From: Cyanidioschyzon merolae
Taxonomy: Eukaryota
Strand: one strand, 5' to 3'
DNA: 64,000 nt
Assembly (NCBI GenBank): GCA_000091205.1
Contig: AP006501.2
Shown: piece by piece, positions 7,200-62,859 of the stretch
Position numbering within the stretch: the stretch's first letter is position 1
Layout: every line of letters begins with the position of its first letter
Notes under the pieces: model-generated
Database searches by the model: none
The model's input: the letters and a program-made list of their open reading frames with translations, nothing else
What the model was told of the DNA's origin: nothing
Program-made: the position numbers and the translations under genes

Positions 7200-7900
7200 A
7201 AGGCGACTAGATACCACCATGCAACGGTGAGATGCATCTGGTACAAGGCACCGCGGAACGAACGCACGAGACGTTCGACTGCGTTCGTATAGTCAGCACA
7301 ACGGAAAACGTTCTGCAACCCTCGAGGGTATACGTCTATATATGTACTCACGTGCAGACGCCTATCAGCCGTTTTTTGACCTGCCACCTGCTATCGGTTT
7401 TAGTTTATCCAGGCACACTTTGAGTCTGAGAAGCTGAATAACAAAGTTGGATGGTGTCCGCTTCTCGGGTCTGGTCTTCAGCACCGCATATCCTCTAGTA
7501 TTGGTGGTGGCGTTCAAGTCTCCGTTCAAGGACGCCAAGCATTTGTATAGCCTCTGCTGGTTGCACGGACGAGTGCAAGAATAGCTAGCGTTTGCGCCCT
7601 CTGTGCTAATAAAGTCTCGTCGGCAAACATCTTTTCTCGCGTAGCTCCGCTCTTCTCCTTCTTTTTGCCCTACATCATTCGATAGTCGACAAGAAGAGTT
7701 TTTTTGTCGAACCTGGCGATGACAGGCCTCCGGGATCCCCGACTTGCATGTCCATATCTTTCCCTTGGATTTTCATTTCATCAAATGAACGTACGTTGAA
7801 CGCGTCTGCTATAAACCTCGAAAAAGCGTTTAGTCACACGCACTTAAGGCTGGAACACATTCGAGGCGAAAGACGATAACAACCGAGCCACCAGCTTGTC
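7200..7900 (+). repeat. Dispersed non-coding repeat, family A, copy 1 (about 700 bp)
   Basis: Shares collinear similarity of about 70-80% with 22380..23080. Shared strings include cagtttatccaggcaca, gagtctgaga.gctg, and tcgacaagaagagtttttttgtcgaa versus tcgaggagaagagttttttgtcgaa. It has no conserved ORF. Boundaries are approximate. Confidence 0.5.
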
Positions 7901-10505: not shown

Positions 10506-10670
10506 AACGTTTGCACTCACGCGTTGAGCATCGGGAAGTGAAGGCACAGCTGGAGCAGTCGCACTGGAAGAGGTCTCACAGTGCGGAGAGACGACGCGGG
10601 AACTGCCTCATACACGCTGAACACACAGGCGGTGGCGATTTGAATATGCGTGTTGACGCGCGTCGACAGC

Positions 10671-10937
10671 GGAGCGTTCATGCGTGCAGGTCGGCAGCAG
10701 CGCGTACTGCGTCCTGCTCGGGGTATGCTGTATTCAGCGTGTGTGAAACGACTGGATGCACCGGGCTCGTGCTTCGTAGTGAACGCTGGAGCTGGACTGG
10801 ACTACCGCGGAGCGTTCATGCGTGCAGGTAGGCAGCAGCGCGTACTGCGTCCTGCTCGGGGTATGCTGTATTCAGCGTGTGTGAAACGACTGGATGCACC
10901 GGGCTCGTGTTTCGTAGTGAACGCTGGAGCTGGACGG
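10671..10937. repeat. Tandem duplication, 2 x about 138 bp with a truncated second unit, in the RAD52/translin divergent intergenic region
   Basis: The unit starts ggagcgttcatgcgtgcagg(t/c)(c/a)ggcagcagcgcgtactgcgtcctgctcggggtatgctgtattcagcgtgtgtgaaacgactggatgcaccgggctcgtg... and is repeated almost exactly at 10671 and 10809. It yields the internally repeated ORF 10650..11012. Confidence 0.8.
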
Positions 10938-22379: not shown

Positions 22380-23080
22380 TGCGAATACGCACTCTGGATA
22401 GACGTACGGCTTCGAGTGGATGCAAAGCGAGGCGTCTCAGGTCTGTGGGGCAATGCGCATTGCCAATACGATCGGGAAAACGAACAATGTCCAGCGACGA
22501 TGCAGGGTACATGAATAGACTCCCGTGGACGGCTTCCAGTCATTTTTGAACGGCCCGATGCCATCGGGTTCAGTTTATCCAGGCACAGTGCGAGTCTGAG
22601 AGGCTGCTTCACAAAGTCGGCTCGCGTCAGCTCCTCAGATCTCGTCTTCAGGACCGCAGCTTGTCTGGTCAAGAGTACGGCGTCAAGGCTCGGGTCACGA
22701 ACGCCATATGTTTCTTGCCTCGCGTTGAACTCAGCCATGGAGGGAGTCCTAGAAAACGTGCCCGCTGTACGACTAGAGTCTCGTCATCGTCTCGTCGGGC
22801 AAACACCTTTTCTAGCCTATCTCCGCTCTTCATCCGCATCACTTGCACTTCTTCGCTCGATCGTCGAGGAGAAGAGTTTTTTGTCGAAACTGACGATGAC
22901 GGTCCTTCAGGATCCCGGATTTCCATCTCCGTACCTTTCTCTTGGGTTTTTTGTTTCCTCAAATGGACACACTTTGAACACATCTGTTATAGACCGCGAA
23001 TATACACTTCATGACACGCACCCGGAAACGGAACACCATTACGGTAAAAGACACCAGCGTACACCGCTGCAGCTACCTTG
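22380..23080 (+). repeat. Dispersed non-coding repeat, family A, copy 2
   Basis: Collinear with 7200..7900 (see that feature). Same orientation, about 15 kb away. Confidence 0.5.
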
Positions 23081-34331: not shown

Positions 34332-35456
34332 TCATGGATGAATAGTATCTTTGAATTCAAAGAACGAGTCATGCATGCGAATGAAAGAGTACTCCTCGCA
34401 TGACCCACAACACCCGTATAAATTAGGTTCTTTGTGAAAGATAGCGAACCCGGCGTGCATAAAACCTTGGAAAAACTCATCCACTTCTGGGATAGAGGCG
34501 ATACCCGCGTGCACTTCGATAAGGACTTGATTCACGTGCCGCAGCGCGTGCCAGGTTCTCAAGGCATATTGCTCTTCAGAGCTGAGTTCACGTTGGCTCC
34601 GTCCTTGGCGAAGGAGCTTGTCGGCTGCCCGGAACGCTCCCAAGAAAGAGGTGAACTCACCACCCTCGATATCGATCTTGAGCACCTCGACGACGTTTGG
34701 CAGCTCCAGGTGACCCAATCCAGACATGATCTCCGCCAGCGAATTGTTGCTCTCAGCCGGGCCAAGCGGCCGGCGAAAAAAACGAACGCGTTCCAGAAAG
34801 CTCTCGGAGTGCATCGCAGATGGTGGCGATGATGTTGGGTCAAAGACGAAAAAATCGCAGTCCGGCAAGCGTTCATGAAGCTTCGTTTCGAAACTGAAAT
34901 CGTTGTTGCTACCAAAACTGTACACAATGCAGCGATACGGGAGCCTGAGCTGCTCACGAAACAGCCGTCCCCGGTTCAGGATAGCAGGTGGGTCGCACAC
35001 CCATTTGCCACCGTCTCCGTTGTTACCGATCCGTTCCTCTAAGGCACAGCCGATATCCGGTTCCCAGTTATTGTAGAAAAAAACCGACGGGTTCGGTTCG
35101 AGGGTAACGGTCTGGCGCTTTCGCTGACGTCGTAACCGAATCCTCCGTTGGGCCCAGAGCGCGTCCGACTCGCACCAGAAGCCGAGCGACTCTTTCAGTG
35201 CTCGCGTGTCCTTCGAAGTCACTGGTAGGGTCCGGTCCCAAATCTCCGTCAGGGTTTTCGCGTTGCGCAAAGAGCTCCCACGACGAAGAGCCCTCGACAC
35301 GGAGCGAACGCAGCTGTCATCCACGGCGGGAAGATCCGCGCGCTGGACACCACTAGAGCGTCCGTTGAGAACACTAGTAGCGCGGTATATTACGATAAGA
35401 GCATAAATAAGAAAAGTCAAAGCCCCTGAAGCGATGCACGGTTTTCGCCACGTCAT
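34332..35456 (-). CDS. FkbM-family (Methyltransf_21-like) methyltransferase domain protein with an N-terminal hydrophobic anchor
   Basis: Shows ...CIVYSFGSNNDFSFETKLHERLPDCDFFVFDP...LKIDIEGGEFTSFL.... The first 80 codons of the track ORF 34332..35696 are a frame-shifted read of the element copy-1 3' tail (GRPLKVELYEKK echoes [12 protein letters not shown] of copy 2). I therefore place the start at the first ATG outside the element, 35456 (MTWRKPCIASGALTFLIYALIVIY). Confidence 0.5.
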   Translation of the reverse strand: MTWRKPCIASGALTFLIYALIVIYRATSVLNGRSSGVQRADLPAVDDSCVRSVSRALRRGSSLRNAKTLTEIWDRTLPVTSKDTRALKESLGFWCESDALWAQRRIRLRRQRKRQTVTLEPNPSVFFYNNWEPDIGCALEERIGNNGDGGKWVCDPPAILNRGRLFREQLRLPYRCIVYSFGSNNDFSFETKLHERLPDCDFFVFDPTSSPPSAMHSESFLERVRFFRRPLGPAESNNSLAEIMSGLGHLELPNVVEVLKIDIEGGEFTSFLGAFRAADKLLRQGRSQRELSSEEQYALRTWHALRHVNQVLIEVHAGIASIPEVDEFFQGFMHAGFAIFHKEPNLYGCCGSCEEYSFIRMHDSFFEFKDTIHP

Positions 35457-35489
35457 GCCGGCCACTGAAAACAAACGTCTTTCAAAAGA

Positions 35490-38400
35490 AAAACGCTGCC
35501 GCCAACGGTGTACAGTAGTTACGGGAAACGCGCCGTAAGCAAATCGTCTCCAGCTGAGGTGCAGACGCATCCCCGTCTTTTTCGACCGTCCACCTACTAC
35601 GTCTTTCATTTTCTTCTCATATAATTCCACTTTGAGAGGTCGCCCCACAGGTTCTCTCGTGTCGAATCTGGAGGTCTTTTCTCCAGCACCGCACATCTCC
35701 TGATATTGATAGCGACATTAAAGTCTCGGTTCACAAACTCCATGCGTTTCTTGCCATCTTTGGTTGTGCTTACTAATGCAAGTAGCCCACGAACTTTCGC
35801 CCTCCTTTCCATTTGCTCCTCCGTCAGCGGTCCGTACTTTGCTATTTCGTCAGGGCTCCTCTGGCACTTTTCCATCTCGATCCTTTGAAGTGTACAACAC
35901 AGTTCATGGTGTGTATACGATGTTCGGAACTCATCTACAGGTATTGTAACTAACCTGTCTGCACACCCCTTGTACGTTCTTGTCGTTGGAGCTCGTGTAC
36001 ACTCTTTTTCAGACGCCTAGCGCCCTGCTCCGTATGCTACTACCAGCCTTTGACTTTCATCCTCTTTGAAGGCACTCAGCTGACTGAAAAAGTTCGCGAA
36101 CGCACACTGCTTGCCACCGTATAGATTCATACGCAATCGAGGCCACCGGGGCTTTGTATACTCTTTCCACAGTGCCTCCTAATGAGCAATACGAACTTTC
36201 ATGAACTCCCGAAAAGCTTGAAAATCTGCTCCGCGGCTCGTCACCTCGCTCAAAGCTTCCAGGTGCTCTTTCATTCCTGCATTGCATGTCTCGTTTTTCT
36301 TCCTCGTATTCATCACACCGGATTCTCGATAGTATCTCGCTCTCGGGAACCTCAAAAGACGCATGTCTTTCTGAATGAAGTTGCCGTCTGGACCATATTC
36401 CGCACGCCTGGGTACAGCGATGGCTGTGACATTCGTATTCCCAGGGTCCGCGCCAACGACAAAGTCGTTATACTTCCTTTTCTGTGTGGCACAATCCGCC
36501 TCCTTCTCATCTTCATACCTCGTCACGTCAACGACAACGTCGTCATCCTCTACCTCTTGCGTAGCAGGATCCGCGTCTTTGTTTTCCTCATCCTTCGTGA
36601 CGGGCGCAGCCGAGGACGGAACTGGCCGAGCTGCCTTCAACCGCCGATAGTCTACACACTAGGCTACTCCATCGGTTTCGATCATCCCCGTGAATACCTT
36701 TTGCTTGCTCGTTTTGAGACGTTTGAAATCGAAGATGTTCTTCCAGTACGTCTCCCTGGTTTCACGGGTGAACTCTCTTTTCCTAAAGTTGAACTCCGGA
36801 CTGATTTCCCTCATGATGCCGTAAAGGACGCCGGAGTCGATAGTCACATAATGTGACTTGATGTTGCACAACGGAACGACGTTGAAGCGCTTCCCCATTA
36901 GGAAAGCCTTCTGTCTCTCCCACTCTTCATTCTTGTCCTCACTCGGCTTCATCTCCGCCTTGCGTTCGAGTTCACGGTCCAGAAACACGAAATAGCGCAG
37001 GATGAGGCGATAATGTCTTTCCTTATCTTTTTTCAACTCTGATACCTTTGCTGCTTGATTCGCCAGCCCCAGTACCGCACGGTGCTCTTGTATAGGCGCA
37101 CGGATTACAGAAGCTTCATTCGTGCTCCTGTGTGACGTCTTCTCATCAACGAATTCGATCTCATCTTCATGCTTGCGATCGTTCGTGATGCCATCGATAA
37201 TCGCCCATATTCCTTTGCGAGAGATGCCCGGATAGAGTGCAAACACCGCGCGTATGATGAAACGTTGGAGCTTCATGGTCATATGGTTCCTCAAGTTCGT
37301 GACGTACGTTTTCATCGCCCCGTAGGTGTAAACACTCGAGTCACCCCTGTATCGAGCACCGCCGAAGCGGGATTCGGTGTGGTTTTCGTGGAGGGCATGC
37401 ACTAGCTCATTTTGCTTCCGCGTTTCCGCTGTACCAAGCATCAGATGGCGAATAAAAGTCTTGTCGAATAATTCTTTCCGAACTTCGACTGTTTAGATGT
37501 CCGTCACGTCGCGATACATCCTCTTCACCAAATGCATGAGTCCTGAAGAGGCCTTTACAATACTCAAGGAGTACGACTCGTCATGGGTTCTGATAGCCTC
37601 CCGCACTTTTTCCCTGTACGGATCCTTGATATGTCCAAGAATACAGACTTTCACTACTGTCTCGTCGTACTGTCGTCTTTCTTGCAGCCATTGGCGTCGG
37701 GCTTCCATCTTTTGCTTCTTGGCCCTCTCCAGTTCCTGTGGACTCGGCACTGTTTTTCGGTTTTTTTTCTGGAAACCGGCGACACACTGGGCCTCCGGCA
37801 TCCTCCACTTCCACTTACGTACATTTCCTTTTTATTTTTTTGAAAAAGGAACCCCCTTTGACTGCTTCTTCTATGAACCGCGAACAATGACTTGAATACA
37901 CTCTCTTGAGAGTTGAAACACAACGGAATCGAAAAAATATACTTTGCTACGGCTTCAGAGCGAATACTACTCGTACATTAGAGCAGAATGCTAACGATCA
38001 GGATCGCGTTTCACTTCAACGGCGAGAAGCACGTCATGTATCATGCCCGCCAGATATGGAGATACGCGCATCGACCATGCTACACAAAAAAGGAAGAGAA
38101 ACTAGCAGTTCAATTGCAACGAGATAACGATTTCTTCTCCCTCTATGATACATATTAAAAGGGAGGCAAGATTTCCATGTAGTCGAAACTTTACTTTCCG
38201 GGCGGAAGGCCCTGCGAGCCGGACGAGTCTGCTAGACCAGTCCTTCATGATCTTCCCAGTGCTCAGTGCTGTGGTGATATTCGAGCAACTCGACCGAAAC
38301 GCAGTTTATTCTCGGGCCGGGGACGGGTATGCTGCGTCTGGGCATCGCGCTGGTCGCAGTGGACTCCTACAAAGTCGTTTCGCGCCACACTACACTGTAC

Positions 38401-38575
38401 CTCTGTCTGCGCAGAGTGCATGCTCCCAGGATGATATTGAATCCCGACCACGTTTCAGGTGAAGCTTTCCTCGATCCGAATCCCTCAGTGGTATGGCAAA
38501 GCCGCTCTGCCTCTATGATGCATCGGCATCAGCCGTATAAGCGCTTTTGCTGGAGGTCAAAGCGGGCACTCGGCG
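35490..38575 (-). mobile_element. TnpB/Fanzor-like RuvC-nuclease element, copy 1 (more decayed), inserted between the divergently transcribed FkbM-like and O-methyltransferase genes
   Basis: An about 3.08-kb block collinear with 58620..61636. The 5' 1.7 kb is about 99% identical between copies and the 3' 1.2 kb about 80-85%. Similarity stops at ...gggcactcggcgc (38575) and fades out near 35490. Confidence 0.6.
35606..37801 (-). pseudogene. Disrupted Fanzor/TnpB-like ORF of copy 1
   Basis: ORF0 37493..37801 (basic N-terminus, KKNRK / RAKKQK). In-frame TAA. ORF A 36659..37441, ending at a TAG where copy 2 has CTG. Fragment 36179..36640 carries RuvC-I ([11 protein letters not shown]). A gap at 35875..36179 lacks an ORF. 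Fragment 35606..35875 carries RuvC-III (NRDFNVAINI). Confidence 0.6.
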
Positions 38576-38794
38576 CACTTTAGTACTCACAAAACGATCC
38601 GTATATCCGAGAGGAAGTAAGCGTCATGGAACTTGAGGATAGGGTGCATCATGATGGACACTTTTTCGATTATTAATCCACATCCCGCAATTTGCGATCC
38701 AAGTACAATCTGAGCGTTTTGTCAAACCGAAAAGAAATCACCATGGCTGCAGACGCCCCCGGCGTGCTCACGAGTTGTTCAGCTCAGCGCCTCT

Positions 38795-56792: not shown

Positions 56793-57659
56793 TGGATATG
56801 AGTATAATGGCCAACTCGAGTGGCGAGCTGTGCATCCATGTGGCGGTGAACGAGTCCCGAAACGGTCGCTTGCTGAATACAGTCTACCTGTGGTCGACTT
56901 GTGCGCTGTTTCGGGCGCTTCGCAGAGTAGTCTCTGCTTATGCGTGCTCTGTCGGTCCGCCAATGCGGCTCGCGTCGAAGAGGGTATACAGCTGCTGAAA
57001 ATGTTCACCACGGTCGGTGTTCAGAAGTCTCTGCTTGTGCGTGCTCTGTCGGTCCGCCAATGCGGCTCGCGTCGAAGAGGGTGTACAGCTATTGGAAATG
57101 CTCGCCTCGGTCGGTGTTCAAAGCATCTGCGAGGAGGCCCTGCTGCCGTCCCAAGCGCAACAAATGCCCCAGTTCCGATCGTAGGAGCCATCCCGTCGCA
57201 GGTGCGCTGGTTTCACGCTCATTGACTGTTTTGACGGCGACGCGCTGGCGTGCAGCACTTGGTGACCCATGGGACGCTTCCAGACATCCGCGGTTCCGTT
57301 CAGCGCTTGCCTTTACGCCGTCCTGGTTCAACGGGAACGTCAGTCATCTCGAAACGGCAGCGTGTACCTACTCTGGTTTTAGGCTTCACGAGCGTGGATG
57401 AGCGGCTCACTAGTCGCTGCCTTGTCCCTAATGCGTCAGCATTCCACTTCCACGTGTCGAGCGTAGCACGTTAGGGTCTCCCTATCGCTAACTCGAAGCT
57501 GGTCCCCGGAAGCAGCTCTCTCCAACAGAGCCGCATCCCAGCTGAGGAATCAGCGCAACAGTTACAGCGACCAGGCGTTCACAACTCACTGTGCTCTGGG
57601 GGACTGCAGAACACGCAAGTCCATGGAATACTCTGGTTAATGGCGTGCAATCAAGATCA

Positions 57660-58538: not shown

Positions 58539-58619
58539 GAGCGGTAGCTGCAGCAGCACTTGAAGCCATGAGCCCTTTTCGACCTTTCGTTGGTCTGTTC
58601 GGTAGTGGCAGCCGCCAAA

Positions 58620-58740
58620 CTACGCTCTGATGTCGGGCGTCGCCACCAGCGGTGTAGAATAGTGGCGAGAAAGTCGACCCAGAAAAATCGTTTCTAGCTG
58701 TCGTGCAGACGCCTCCCCGTCCTTCTCGACCGGCCACGTA
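58620..58740 (-). ncRNA. Candidate omega-RNA (guide RNA scaffold) region immediately 3' of the RuvC ORF stop codon
   Basis: The non-coding sequence 3' of the stop is conserved between copies for about 110-120 bp (for example gtgcagacgc.tccccgtc, aaatcgt.tc.agctg). It ends where the unrelated host flanks begin. This is by analogy with TnpB/Fanzor loci only. Confidence 0.25.
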
Positions 58741-59856
58741 CTACTGGTTCCATTTTTTTTCATATAGTTCCGCTTTGAGAGGTTGTCCAAGAAAAAGCTC
58801 TCGTGTCCACTCTGAAGGTCTTCTTTCCATCACCGCACATGTCCTTATATTGATAGCGGCATTAAAATCTCGGTTCACAAACTCCATACGTTTCTTGCCA
58901 TTGACTGTACTTAATAATGCGAGTAGTCCTCGAACATTCGCCCACCTTTCCATATGCTCCTCCGTCAGCGGTCCGTACTTTGCTATTTCGTCAGGGCTCC
59001 TCTGGCACTTTTCCATCTCGATCCTTTGAAGTGTACAACACAGTACATGGTGTGTATACGATGTTCGGAACTCATCTACAGGTACTATGACAAAACGTCG
59101 TGCGTACTCCTTATACGTTCTCGTCGTTGGAGCTGGTGTACACCCTTTTTGGGTCTTCGAGCGCGCTGCTCCGTACGCCACTACGAGCCTCTGACATTGA
59201 TCCTCTTTGAGGGCACTCAACCCATTGAAAAAATTCGCGAACGCCCGTTGCCTCCCACAATATAGATTCATACACAGACGAGCCCACCGAGGCTTTGTAT
59301 ATTCATTCCGCAGCGCATCCCAATGAGCAACACGAACATTCATGAATTTCAGAAAAGCTGTAAAGTCCGCTCCGCGGCTCGTCACCTCGCTCAAAGCTTC
59401 TACGTGATCCTTCATTCCTGCATTCCATGTCTCAATTTTCTTCGTTGCATTCATGATTCCCGATTCTCGATAGAATCTTGCTCTCGAGAACCTCAAAAGT
59501 CGCATGTCTTTCTGAAGCAAGTTACCGTCCTTACCATCTTCGGCACGCTTGGGTACAGCGATGGTTATGATATTTGTGTTTCCGGGGTCCGCGCCAACGA
59601 CAAAGTCTATCTCATGCACTTTCAGTGCCGCAGGATCCGCGTCTCTGTTTTCCTCATGCTTCGTCATGGGCGAAGCCGAAGGCACGATAGGAAGAAACGC
59701 CTCCAAGCGCTTGCAGTCTACACACAGGGCTACTCCATCGGTTTCGATCATCCCCGTGAATACCTTTTGCCTGCTAACTTTTGAGACGTCTGAAATCGAA
59801 GAGACTCTTCCAGTACGTGTCAGGGGCTTCGCCGGTGAACTCTGTCCGCCTTCCAT
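58741..59856 (-). CDS. Element ORF B: TnpB/Fanzor-type RuvC nuclease domain with a degenerate zinc-finger insert
   Basis: Ruv[20 protein letters not shown]. Ruv[29 protein letters not shown]/Zn-finger remnant H..CC....C. Ruv[23 protein letters not shown]. The order and spacing are as in TnpB/Fanzor/Cas12. It continues the ORF A reading frame after the +1 shift (shared ...[13 protein letters not shown]). Confidence 0.65.
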
Positions 59857-60508
59857 CGAACTCCGGACAGATCCCCTTCATGATGCCATGAAGGACGCCG
59901 GAGTCGATAGTCACATAATGTGACTTGATGTTGCACAACGGAACGACGTTGAAGCGCTTCACCGCTAGGAAAGCCTTCTGTCTTTCCCACTCTTCACTCT
60001 TGTCCTCACTCGGCTTCATCTCCGCCTTGCGTTCGAGTTCACGGTCCAGAAACACGAAATAGCGCAGGATGAGGCGATAATGTCTTTCCTTATCTTTTTT
60101 CAACTCTGATACCTTTGCTGCTTGATTCGCCAGCCCCAGTACCGCACGGTGCTCTTGTATAGGCGCACGGATTACAGAAGCTTCATTCGTGCTCCTGTGT
60201 GACTTCTTCTCATCAACGAATTCGACCTCATCTTCATGCTTGCGATCGTTCGTGATGCCATCGATAATCGCCCATATTCCTTTGCGAGAGATGCCCGGAT
60301 AGAGTGCAAACACCGCGCGTATGATGAAACGTTGGAGCTTCATGGTCATATGGTTCCTCAAGTTCGTGACGTACGTTTTCATCGCCCCGTAGGTGTAAAC
60401 ACTCGAGTCACCCCTGTATCGAGCACCGCCGAAGCGGGATTCGGTGTGATTTTCGTGGAGGGCGTGCACTAGCTCATCTTGCTTCCGCGTTTCCGCTGTA
60501 CCAAGCAT
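59774..60508 (-). CDS. Element ORF A: N-terminal (non-RuvC) half of the Fanzor/TnpB-like protein
   Basis: ATG confirmed at 60506..60508. It is 244 aa and about 95% identical to copy-1 ORF A (36659..37441). It ends at a stop created by a +1 insertion relative to copy 1 (aaaagttagcaggcaaaagg versus aaaacgagcaagcaaaagg). Confidence 0.55.
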
Positions 60509-60559
60509 CAGATGGCGAATAAAAGTCTTGTCGAATAATTCTTTCCGAACTTCGACTGT

Positions 60560-60883
60560 TTAGATGTCCGTCACGTCGCGATACATCCTCTTCACCAAAT
60601 GCATGAGTCCTGAAGAGGCCTTTACAATACTCAAGGAGTACGACTCGTCATGGGTTCTGATAGCCTCCCGCACTTTTTCCCTGTACGGATCCTTGATATG
60701 TCCAAGAATACAGACTTTCACTTCTGTCTCGTCGTACTGTCGTCTTTCTTGCAGCCATTGGCGTCGGGCTTCCATCTTTTGCTTCTTGGCCCTCTCCAGT
60801 TCCTGTGGACTCGGCACTGTTTTTCGGTTTTTTTTTTCTGGAAACCGGCGACACACTGGGCCTCCGGCATCCTCCACTTCCAC
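60560..60883 (-). CDS. Element ORF0: basic (NLS-like) N-terminal segment of the Fanzor-like protein, separated from ORF A by an in-frame TAA present in both copies
   Basis: Reads ...KKNRKTVPSPQELERAKKQKMEARRQWLQERRQYDETEVKVCILGHIKDPYREKVREAIRTHDESYSLSIVKASSGLMHLVKRMYRDVTDI. Copy 2 has an A10 run where copy 1 has A8, which shifts the N-terminal frame. The in-frame start is GTG. Confidence 0.45.
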   Translation of the reverse strand: MEVEDAGGPVCRRFPEKKNRKTVPSPQELERAKKQKMEARRQWLQERRQYDETEVKVCILGHIKDPYREKVREAIRTHDESYSLSIVKASSGLMHLVKRMYRDVTDI

Positions 60884-61710
60884 TTACGTACATTTCCTTT
60901 TTATTTTTTGAAAAAGGAACCCCCTTTGACTGCTTCTTCTATGAACCGCGAACAATGACTTGAATACACTCTCTTGAGAGTTGAAACACAACGGAATCGA
61001 AAAAATATACTTTGCTACGGCTTCAGAGCGAATACTACTCGTACATTAGAGCAGAATGCTAACGATCAGGATCGCGTTTCACTTCAACGGCGAGAAGCAC
61101 GTCATGTATCATGCCCGCCAGATATGGAGGTACGCGCATCGACCATGCTACACAAAAAAGGAAGAGGAACTAGCAGTTCAATTGCAACGAGATAACGATT
61201 TCTTCTCCCTCTATGATACATATTAAAAGGGAGGCAAGATTTCCATGTAGTCGAAACTTTACTTTCCGGGCGGAAGGCCCTGCGAGCCGGACGAGTCTGC
61301 TAGACCAGTCCTTCATGATCTTCCCAGTGCTCAGTGCTGTGGTGATATTCGAGCAACTCGACCGAAACGCAGTTTATTCTCGGGCCGGGGACGGGTATGC
61401 TGCGTCTGGGCATCGCGCTGGTCGCAGTGGACTCCTACAAAGTCGTTTCGCGCCACACTACACTGTACCTCTGTCTGCGCAGAGTGCATGCTCCCAGGAT
61501 GATATGGAATCCCGACCACGTTTCAGGTGAAGCTTTCCTCGATCCGAATCCCTCAGTGGTATGGCAAAGCCGCTCTGCCTCTATGATGCATCGGCATCAG
61601 CCGTATAAGCGCTTTTGCTGGAGGTCAAAGCGGGCACTCGGCGCCCGATAGAATATACAAAAAGACTAGTACGTCCGAAAGGAGGTACCTTTCATGGAAC
61701 AAAAACGTAG

Positions 61711-62859
<1,149 letters not shown>

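Follow-up and report, generated by a model that had tools for sequence, protein, structure and literature searches.

A candidate omega-RNA scaffold in the right-end tail of decayed CMe-1A-type Fanzor1 copies of Cyanidioschyzon merolae

The stretch of nuclear DNA analyzed here, 64,000 nucleotides long and referred to below as the window, carries four host ORFs that are identical to GenBank proteins of C. merolae 10D: BRX1 (BAM82960.1), the methyltransferases BAM82953.1 and BAM82952.1, and a leucine-rich repeat (LRR) protein (BAM82961.1). A self-comparison of the window revealed an element of approximately 3.2 kb that is present in two minus-strand copies, copy A at ~58603-61819 and copy B at ~35462-38752. 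The coding pieces of the two copies and their stop codons are the following:

58741..59856, minus strand: C-terminal 371-aa piece of the copy A Fanzor1 pseudogene, with the RuvC motifs around D90, E262, and D330 and the stop codon TAG at 58743-58741
59774..60508, minus strand: upstream ORF piece of copy A, in another frame than 58741..59856, with a frameshift near 59770
60560..60883, minus strand: N-terminal ORF piece of copy A, set off by an in-frame stop at 60560-60562
35606..37801, minus strand: Fanzor1 pseudogene of copy B, with several in-frame stops and a C-terminal frameshift
35599-35597, minus strand: homologous stop codon TAG of copy B

With these stops and frameshifts, an intact Fanzor1 ORF is absent from both window copies. 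The terminal hairpin described below is also degenerate in copy A, and both window copies are relics. A tblastn search with the two copies found Fanzor pieces as their only coding content; neither a Y1 nor a Rep transposase was found in them. The two copies are mosaic in their identity to each other. Their 5′ 2.2 kb (59630-61819 versus 36564-38752) are 93.8% identical and their 3′ 1 kb (58642-59666 versus 35498-36525) 82.3% identical, with just ~75% identity in the first 260 nt. Both copies also share an in-frame stop after the sequence ...MYRDVTDI. This common stop and the mosaic identity suggest gene conversion or recombination between copies that were already dead.

We provisionally assigned the element to the Fanzor1 family CMe-1A by its match to the published description of that family, which comprises ~150 copies of ~3 kb that are ~80% identical to their consensus, lacks terminal inverted repeats (TIRs), has target site duplications (TSDs) that could not be determined, and shares its 5′ part with another repeat (Bao & Jurka 2013, PMC3627910). 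The window element comes from the same organism and agrees with CMe-1A in its length of ~3 kb, in copies that are ~80% alike, in its Fanzor1 ORF, in the lack of evident TIRs, and in a 5′ part that is shared at a higher identity than the rest. It goes beyond the description in that the paper is silent on a 3′ tail, a hairpin, a GGTG end, and the position of the copies relative to host genes. In the 5′ flanks that we examined, the 5′ boundary of the element was fuzzy, and TSDs, a target motif, and a TAM-like motif were not resolved. A small subterminal hairpin, ATCCC-N7-GGGAT, lies ~45 nt inside the 5′ end (~61765-61745 and 38705-38685 in the window); one related locus carries the compensatory variant ATGCC/GGCAT (L080) and another a palindromic form, ATGCCGGCAT (L013).

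Searches of Pfam and of PDB sequences with the single 371-aa ORF as the query returned no match, nor did a profile built from its close relatives, and a first AF2 model made from the shallow alignment of close relatives reached a pLDDT of 49 and was useless. Metagenomes contained 254 close relatives of the ORF, and an exhaustive search returned 1415 cluster representatives. A profile of 45 distant relatives matched the solved Fanzor1 chains 9cf0 (PpFz1 of Parasitella; 3.2e-19), 8gkh (SpuFz1 of Spizellomyces; 1.9e-11), and 9cer (GtFz1 of Guillardia; 1.2e-6). The profile search aligned the DPG, DEFRT, and NRD motifs with those of the solved chains, and D90, E262, and D330, which are invariant or nearly so in the family alignment, fell on their catalytic motifs. 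An AF2 model based on the distant-relative alignment had a pLDDT of 81.6, and its best PDB matches were SpuFz (E 8.5e-12; TM 0.62), followed by PpFz and GtFz and then by Cas12/TnpB structures, with 8h1j among them. Cas12f1-like TNB domains were matched below the threshold in 5 of 10 relatives. Judged by its profile match to solved structures and by its predicted fold, the ORF at 58741..59856 is a Fanzor1, and the nuclease called at this place by the first-pass annotation is a genuine one.

Downstream of the stop codon, each copy continues into a non-coding tail, which is followed by the host flank:

58603..58740, minus strand: non-coding tail of copy A, ~138 nt, with a 3′ boundary accurate to ±5 nt; relic of the putative omega-RNA scaffold and of the right end of the element
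35462..35596, minus strand: non-coding tail of copy B, ~135 nt, of the class-1 family type
58583..58602, minus strand: first 20 nt of the host flank of copy A, the site of a putative flank-derived guide if transcription crosses the tail

The first-pass annotation had described 110 to 120 bp past the stop as conserved in both copies, standing out against a 3′ half of only ~80% identity and ending at the junction with host DNA. The similarity of the two tails is real, with an alignable length of ~100 nt that is slightly shorter than described: identity was 82% from +1 to +50 and 68% from +51 to +100, it dropped to the background (~40%) from +101, and the blastn alignment of the two copies ended at 58642/35498. 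It did not stand out, since between the copies the ORF itself has 76% identity in its last 100 nt and 78 to 85% in its 3′ half. Tail conservation is not above that of the adjacent ORF, and the similarity between copies A and B alone therefore shows common descent inside a transposon and not a special constraint. As for the junction, the similarity between the two copies ends before it, because copy A ends in ~38 nt (58640-58603) that are not host DNA but a terminal hairpin of divergent sequence; it is in the family as a whole that conservation stops at a GGTG and gives way to copy-specific flanks.

This family-wide boundary was clear. The same tail was found at 75 to 82% identity beside relatives of the ORF in 80 metagenome loci, which come from six metagenomes representing other Cyanidioschyzon genomes and include some of the same insertions as copies A and B, and a model of the tail matched 74 places. 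The tail spans ~135 to 138 nt from the stop codon in 65 distinct related copies, ends at the conserved GGTG, and is followed by flanks that diverge. Across 70 unique copies, conservation remained at the level of the ORF for ~130 to 138 nt and then collapsed; column conservation, 0.65-0.9 up to the end of the hairpin, was below 0.35 past it, and the flanking DNA was unrelated between copies. Two other accounts of the tail were rejected: chance similarity, as the identity between the copies is far above chance and the tail recurs in the 80 loci, and continuation of the reading frame into the tail, as the double stop CAGTAGTAG is kept in most copies.

Single-sequence folds of 47 non-redundant tails recurrently contained five helices, which we call P1, P2, P3, H3, and P5. 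In the family, P1 is a closing stem between CAGUAGU, the segment with the stop codon, and ACUACUG, located 85 nt downstream; P2 pairs CCGGUC with GACUGG; P3 pairs GAGGCGUCU with AGACGUCUU in 9 bp, two of which are G-U; H3 is a small GGGCG/CGCC hairpin; and P5 is a long terminal hairpin with the foot CACC...GGUG. The counterparts of these helices located in the window, together with a third tail-like segment, are as follows:

58740..58746, minus strand: 5′ strand of P1 in copy A, CAGUAGU, which pairs with ACUAUUC at 58657-58663 in 6 of 7 pairs
58685..58715, minus strand: P3 hairpin of copy A, GAGGCGUCU (58715-58707) with AAACGAUUU (58693-58685), in which 7 of 9 pairs are kept
58603..58649, minus strand: terminal hairpin of copy A in a variant form, CUGGUGGCGACGCCCGAC, an 11-nt loop, and GUUUGGCGGCUGCCACUA, degenerate relative to the family classes
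35462..35508, minus strand: terminal hairpin of copy B, CCGUUGG.CGGCAGCGUUUUUC-UUUU-GAAAGACG.UUUGU.UUCAGUGG
7239..7402, minus strand: third, much more diverged tail-like segment, part of a ~500-bp deletion derivative, ending in GGUGC

The terminal hairpin occurs at the same place in at least four unrelated sequence versions. Class 1 has the form CGUUUUUC-UUUU-GAAAGRCG with an outer stem, class 2 the form CGUCGUUCGA-CUU-UCGAACGGCG, and a third type, named after locus L017, consists of 15 perfect bp; the remaining versions are those of copy A and of the relic at 7239. The motif GACAA(A)ACGTTT is present at the 5′ end of the element and, in some class-1 copies, also in the 3′ arm of the hairpin. 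As an imperfect TIR or direct repeat, this motif was rejected as too weak, since it is missing from class-2 hairpins. At position 58677, within H3, copy A has a T, and its 99%-identical metagenome counterparts (L001 and L003) have a G; the T disrupts one base pair of GGGCG/CGCC and illustrates how the tail continues to decay in strain 10D.

The fold of the whole tail was more stable on the sense strand than on the antisense strand in 46 of the 47 tails, with mean z scores of −1.94 and −0.93, respectively. For the terminal 56 nt, the mean z score was −1.68 in the sense and −0.60 in the antisense direction, compared with +0.16 for the downstream flank, and six well-kept copies reached −3.8 to −5.65. 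The two window tails folded no better than their shuffled versions (z of −0.93 and −0.90). G.U cells far outnumbered A.C cells, both in the helices overall (410 versus 95) and in the terminal hairpin (209 versus 22), and this excess indicates that the structure belongs to the strand of the ORF. When DNA parameters were used, the hairpin folded on the sense strand with z scores of −2.2 to −2.8, and a shorter core of it folded on the antisense strand.

The covariation check suggested by the first-pass annotation gave a divided answer, with a clear signal for the terminal hairpin and, for the proximal helices, none on alignments not fitted to the structure and a weak one on the fitted alignment. 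RNAalifold found no consensus structure in a MAFFT alignment of the tails, in part because MAFFT misaligns the two hairpin classes by 3 nt in their 5′ arms. Among 20 class-1 tails, 84.5% of the cells were paired, compared with 84.1% after shuffling, so that column conservation accounts for the pairing. An R-scape-like G-test with APC on the 47 tails placed none of the 27 proximal pairs within the top 200 of 4656 column pairs, and variants shared by several insertion sites paired no better than private ones (OR of 1.48, p of 0.115). These negative results on unfitted alignments imply that the variation reflects, for the most part, dead copies decaying away from a consensus with an incidental ability to fold.

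For the scores of the hairpin and the proximal helices, we used an alignment fitted with a covariance model. On this alignment, 86.2% of the terminal hairpin was paired, versus 77.0 ± 0.8% after shuffling, and its covariation score was 0.280, versus 0.161 for the shuffled alignments (0 of 500 reaching it) and 0.07 to 0.11 for slid registers; the proximal helices had a small excess, 0.120 versus 0.104. As a control, a decoy model (R2) was made from the structural model (R1) by moving every 3′ partner by two columns. Structure added nothing to detection, with R1 and R2 giving equal bits. The decoy reached 45% pairing, and its pair-level measures were nonsignificant (97 of 500 and 42 of 500), so the hairpin signal was not reproduced in the wrong register. 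The cell-level measures of the decoy were still nominally significant, which indicates that measures of this kind are inflated by the relatedness of the copies and by the fitting. A search of Rfam 15, which may hold no Fanzor RNA family, gave no match better than E = 1.7 for either window tail.

Collectively, we regard the tail as non-coding DNA at the right end of a CMe-1A-type Fanzor1 element, here in two decayed copies; in the active ancestor it probably encoded the scaffold of a guide RNA (omega-RNA), with a probability of about 0.6. The grounds that make this reading plausible are the position, which is that of the RNAs of known Fanzors, the identity of the Fanzor1, the GGTG boundary, the structure of the family consensus on the sense strand, and the maintained terminal hairpin. 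All characterized omega-RNAs of Fanzor and TnpB systems lie at the 3′ end of the ORF and the right end of the element (PMC10432273, PMC10530073), and other Fanzors copurify with RNAs from the 3′ non-coding region that abuts the right end (PMC10530073). [quoted passage not shown] In the active ancestor, this segment of ~135 nt would have been read on the ORF strand in two parts, namely a proximal domain with internal hairpins closed by the stop-codon stem CAGUAGU/ACUACUG and the long, G-U-rich terminal hairpin, whose foot CACC...GGUG would mark the end of the element. By analogy with SpuFz1, transcription 15 to 20 nt into the flank would then have supplied a copy-specific guide, and the RNA would presumably have been processed, bound by the nuclease, and used to guide it. 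The first-pass annotation had proposed such a scaffold for the two copies in the window. The proposal is supported in part: it agrees with the properties of the family just named and poorly with the window copies themselves, whose tails fold like shuffled sequences and whose ORFs are broken; any RNAs made from them would be relics beside dead genes.

[quoted passage not shown] 2023, PMC10432273). The two systems share a conserved scaffold followed by a variable flank, and SpuFz1 is a homologue of the C. merolae protein in both structure and profile. They differ in that the SpuFz1 scaffold spans a terminal inverted repeat, whereas the tail of the window family is ~135 nt long, lacks a TIR, and ends in a hairpin of 16 to 25 bp; moreover, the SpuFz1 RNA was sequenced and shown to guide cleavage, whereas the RNA of the CMe-1A-type tail is a predicted one. 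More generally, the omega-RNAs of Fz1 have several stem-loops before the guide, the first of which is conserved, with a lineage-variable region between it and the guide (Xu et al. 2024, PMC11423790). The variable terminal hairpin of the C. merolae tail matches that variable region. The conserved 7-bp SL1 of Fz1 is bound by the RuvC and TNB domains (PMC11423790), and its candidate counterparts in the C. merolae tail are P2 (6 bp) and P3 (9 bp).

The predicted RNA is what the field would expect for any Fanzor1 element, and the finding mainly adds it to a family known since 2013; our literature search found no paper that links Fanzor and C. merolae to an RNA. If the tail is indeed an omega-RNA, C. 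merolae would offer a Fanzor1 system with ~150 genomic copies, a sharply defined right end (GGTG), and natural scaffold variants to study, in a thermo-acidophilic, genetically tractable, and almost intron-free organism.

The position of the tails relative to host genes was strongly biased. Of 44 distinct insertion sites, 24 have the start of a same-strand ORF of 200 aa or more within 100 nt downstream of the tail, compared with 3.4% for a null in which intergenic-like positions and orientations were random; when the limits were relaxed to 150 aa or more and 150 nt, 29 of the 44 sites qualified, versus a null of 8.7%. The median distance from the end of the tail to the start codon was ~45 nt, and 14 of the 44 sites had no downstream gene. 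Ordinary, unrelated Pfam domains were found in 8 of 10 such downstream ORFs tested. The 5′ side of the element showed no such bias (5 of 19). Both window copies follow the pattern: the hairpin foot of copy B (35462) and the annotated ATG of BAM82952.1 (35456) are 6 nt apart, and the end of copy A lies ~65 nt from the annotated ATG (58538) of the LRR gene BAM82961.1. Copy B (35462-38775) is wedged between two divergently transcribed annotated genes, BAM82952.1 and BAM82953.1; the ATG of the latter (38795), on the upstream side, lies 20 to 55 nt from the fuzzy 5′ end of copy B, and without this copy the start codons of the two genes would be only ~30 to 60 nt apart. This insertion pattern suggests that the element is targeted strand-specifically to the vicinity of transcription starts, that the tail needs to be transcribed through, or both.

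Other explanations of the tail have to be weighed against the scaffold. It may be the right end of the element at the DNA level only, in which case the hairpin, the GGTG, and the left subterminal hairpin would be signals for a trans-acting transposase, possibly on single-stranded DNA, resembling the ends of IS200/IS605, IS91, Helitron, or Replitron elements, and no guide RNA would be involved; we hold this to be unlikely. The family has no TIRs, and its TSDs are not determinable (PMC3627910), end hairpins are general for HUH transposons (PMC10288648), and several features of the element suit such a role: the sense hairpin also folds with DNA parameters and its perfect Watson-Crick core does so on the antisense strand, the L017-type hairpin is a perfect palindrome of 15 bp, the 5′ subterminal hairpin has a compensatory variant, GACAA(A)ACGTTT recurs at the two ends of some class-1 copies, and a tail was retained by a deletion derivative. 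Elements of the TnpB-carrying IS200/IS605 group, e.g., ISDra2, have a homologous nuclease (8h1j) and an RNA that overlaps the end of the ORF and the right end, as the putative C. merolae RNA would. They lack TIRs and TSDs and have subterminal hairpins; the C. merolae element may be comparable in these respects, as it has no evident TIRs, its flanks yielded no TSDs, and it carries a long hairpin at the 3′ end and a small one, with one compensatory variant, near the fuzzy 5′ end. The C. merolae element differs from them in its lack of a Y1 transposase, its eukaryotic host, a much longer hairpin, and the absence of a derived TAM or target motif. Helitrons and Replitrons share a hairpin near the 3′ terminus of an element without TIRs, and some Fanzors ride on Helitrons; however, the C. 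merolae element ends in GGTG and not CTRR, lacks Rep and helicase, and has a hairpin that is G-U-rich on one strand, and Replitrons were not found in red algae (PMC10288648). Against a role at the DNA level alone, G-U pairs, which exist only on the ORF strand, make up about one-third of the consensus hairpin and would destabilize it as DNA and abolish it on the opposite strand; P1 joins the stop-codon region to a site 85 nt downstream with no obvious role in DNA; and the element encodes Fanzor pieces and no transposase. Nor are the two roles exclusive, since TnpB systems combine DNA and RNA functions in one sequence; the terminal hairpin may well act as a transposon end at the DNA level, in addition to a scaffold role or in its place.

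The bias in insertion sites bears on a further account, in which the tail mainly serves the neighboring host gene, either as an outward promoter or 5′ leader or as a 3′ UTR or terminator of the Fanzor gene, thereby enabling a co-oriented gene ~45 nt downstream, and its structure is incidental. The frequency of such genes, their ordinary domains, and the close starts beside both window copies all speak for this account, which we nonetheless consider quite improbable: the tail is common to all copies by descent, including those at the sites without a downstream gene, and targeted insertion near transcription starts with read-through would explain the pattern equally well and would favor flank-bearing transcripts. 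Least of all do we expect the tail to be neutral transposon sequence without function, with a structure that arises from its G+T-rich composition and shared ancestry. The negative covariation results on alignments not fitted to the structure, the shuffle-like folds of the window copies, a conservation no higher than that of the ORF, and the inflation of cell-level shuffle tests revealed by the decoy would all be expected of such a sequence. However, the shuffles preserved dinucleotides and thus controlled for composition, and the well-kept copies still folded far better than them; the same site holds a long hairpin in four or more unrelated sequence versions; and the statistics of the hairpin alone lie far above those of shuffles and slid registers.

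On the scaffold reading, with right ends located just upstream of host starts, the putative guides would be drawn from the 5′ UTRs of host genes. A bolder proposal, which we offer as speculation with the odds clearly against it, is that CMe-1A integrates strand-specifically at or near host transcription start sites and persists because transcription that crosses or exits its structured right end continues into the host gene, so that this end would be both an omega-RNA scaffold and a donor of a 5′ leader or promoter. If this were true, dozens of ordinary genes in a minimal eukaryotic genome would have their expression linked to the relics of an RNA-guided nuclease. Our literature search found no mention of right ends lying upstream of host start codons. 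We consider the insertion pattern a more interesting lead than the predicted RNA itself, as it bears on the target choice of this unclassified transposon and on the transcription of host genes through Fanzor right ends.

Several minor observations concern derivatives and relatives of the element and its surroundings. The window contains two minus-strand deletion derivatives of ~500 bp, at 7346-7843 and 22519-23021, that are 70% alike; each includes a segment similar to 37762-37887 along with part of the ORF end, and a diverged tail is kept in the first. This tail-like segment (7239-7402) has a short terminal hairpin of its own, CGAACG-N11-CGUUC, and was matched by the tail model R1 with 26.6 bits (E of ~1e-6). 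The derivatives resemble the ORF-less "ghost loci" described in S. punctatus. Among the relatives of the Fanzor1, a 40%-identical protein of 699 aa from a brine metagenome (P0121; L081, 435-3600) is encoded directly downstream of a gene for a DDE_3 (Tc1/mariner-type) transposase, which may hint at the transposon class in which this Fanzor1 clade resides. The N-terminal part of this protein has a weak precomputed match to PF26935 (DUF8286), and its contig stops 32 nt past the gene. The Methyltransf_22 protein BAM82952.1 downstream of copy B (34335-35456) falls in a 90%-identity cluster that includes BAM79085.1, a paralogue on another chromosome-sized contig, which hints at a segmental duplication. 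Finally, two tandem duplications unrelated to the tail, at 10666-10935 and 56926-57119, have units of 132 nt at 98% identity and 97 nt at 91% identity, respectively, and the latter sits just downstream of BRX1.
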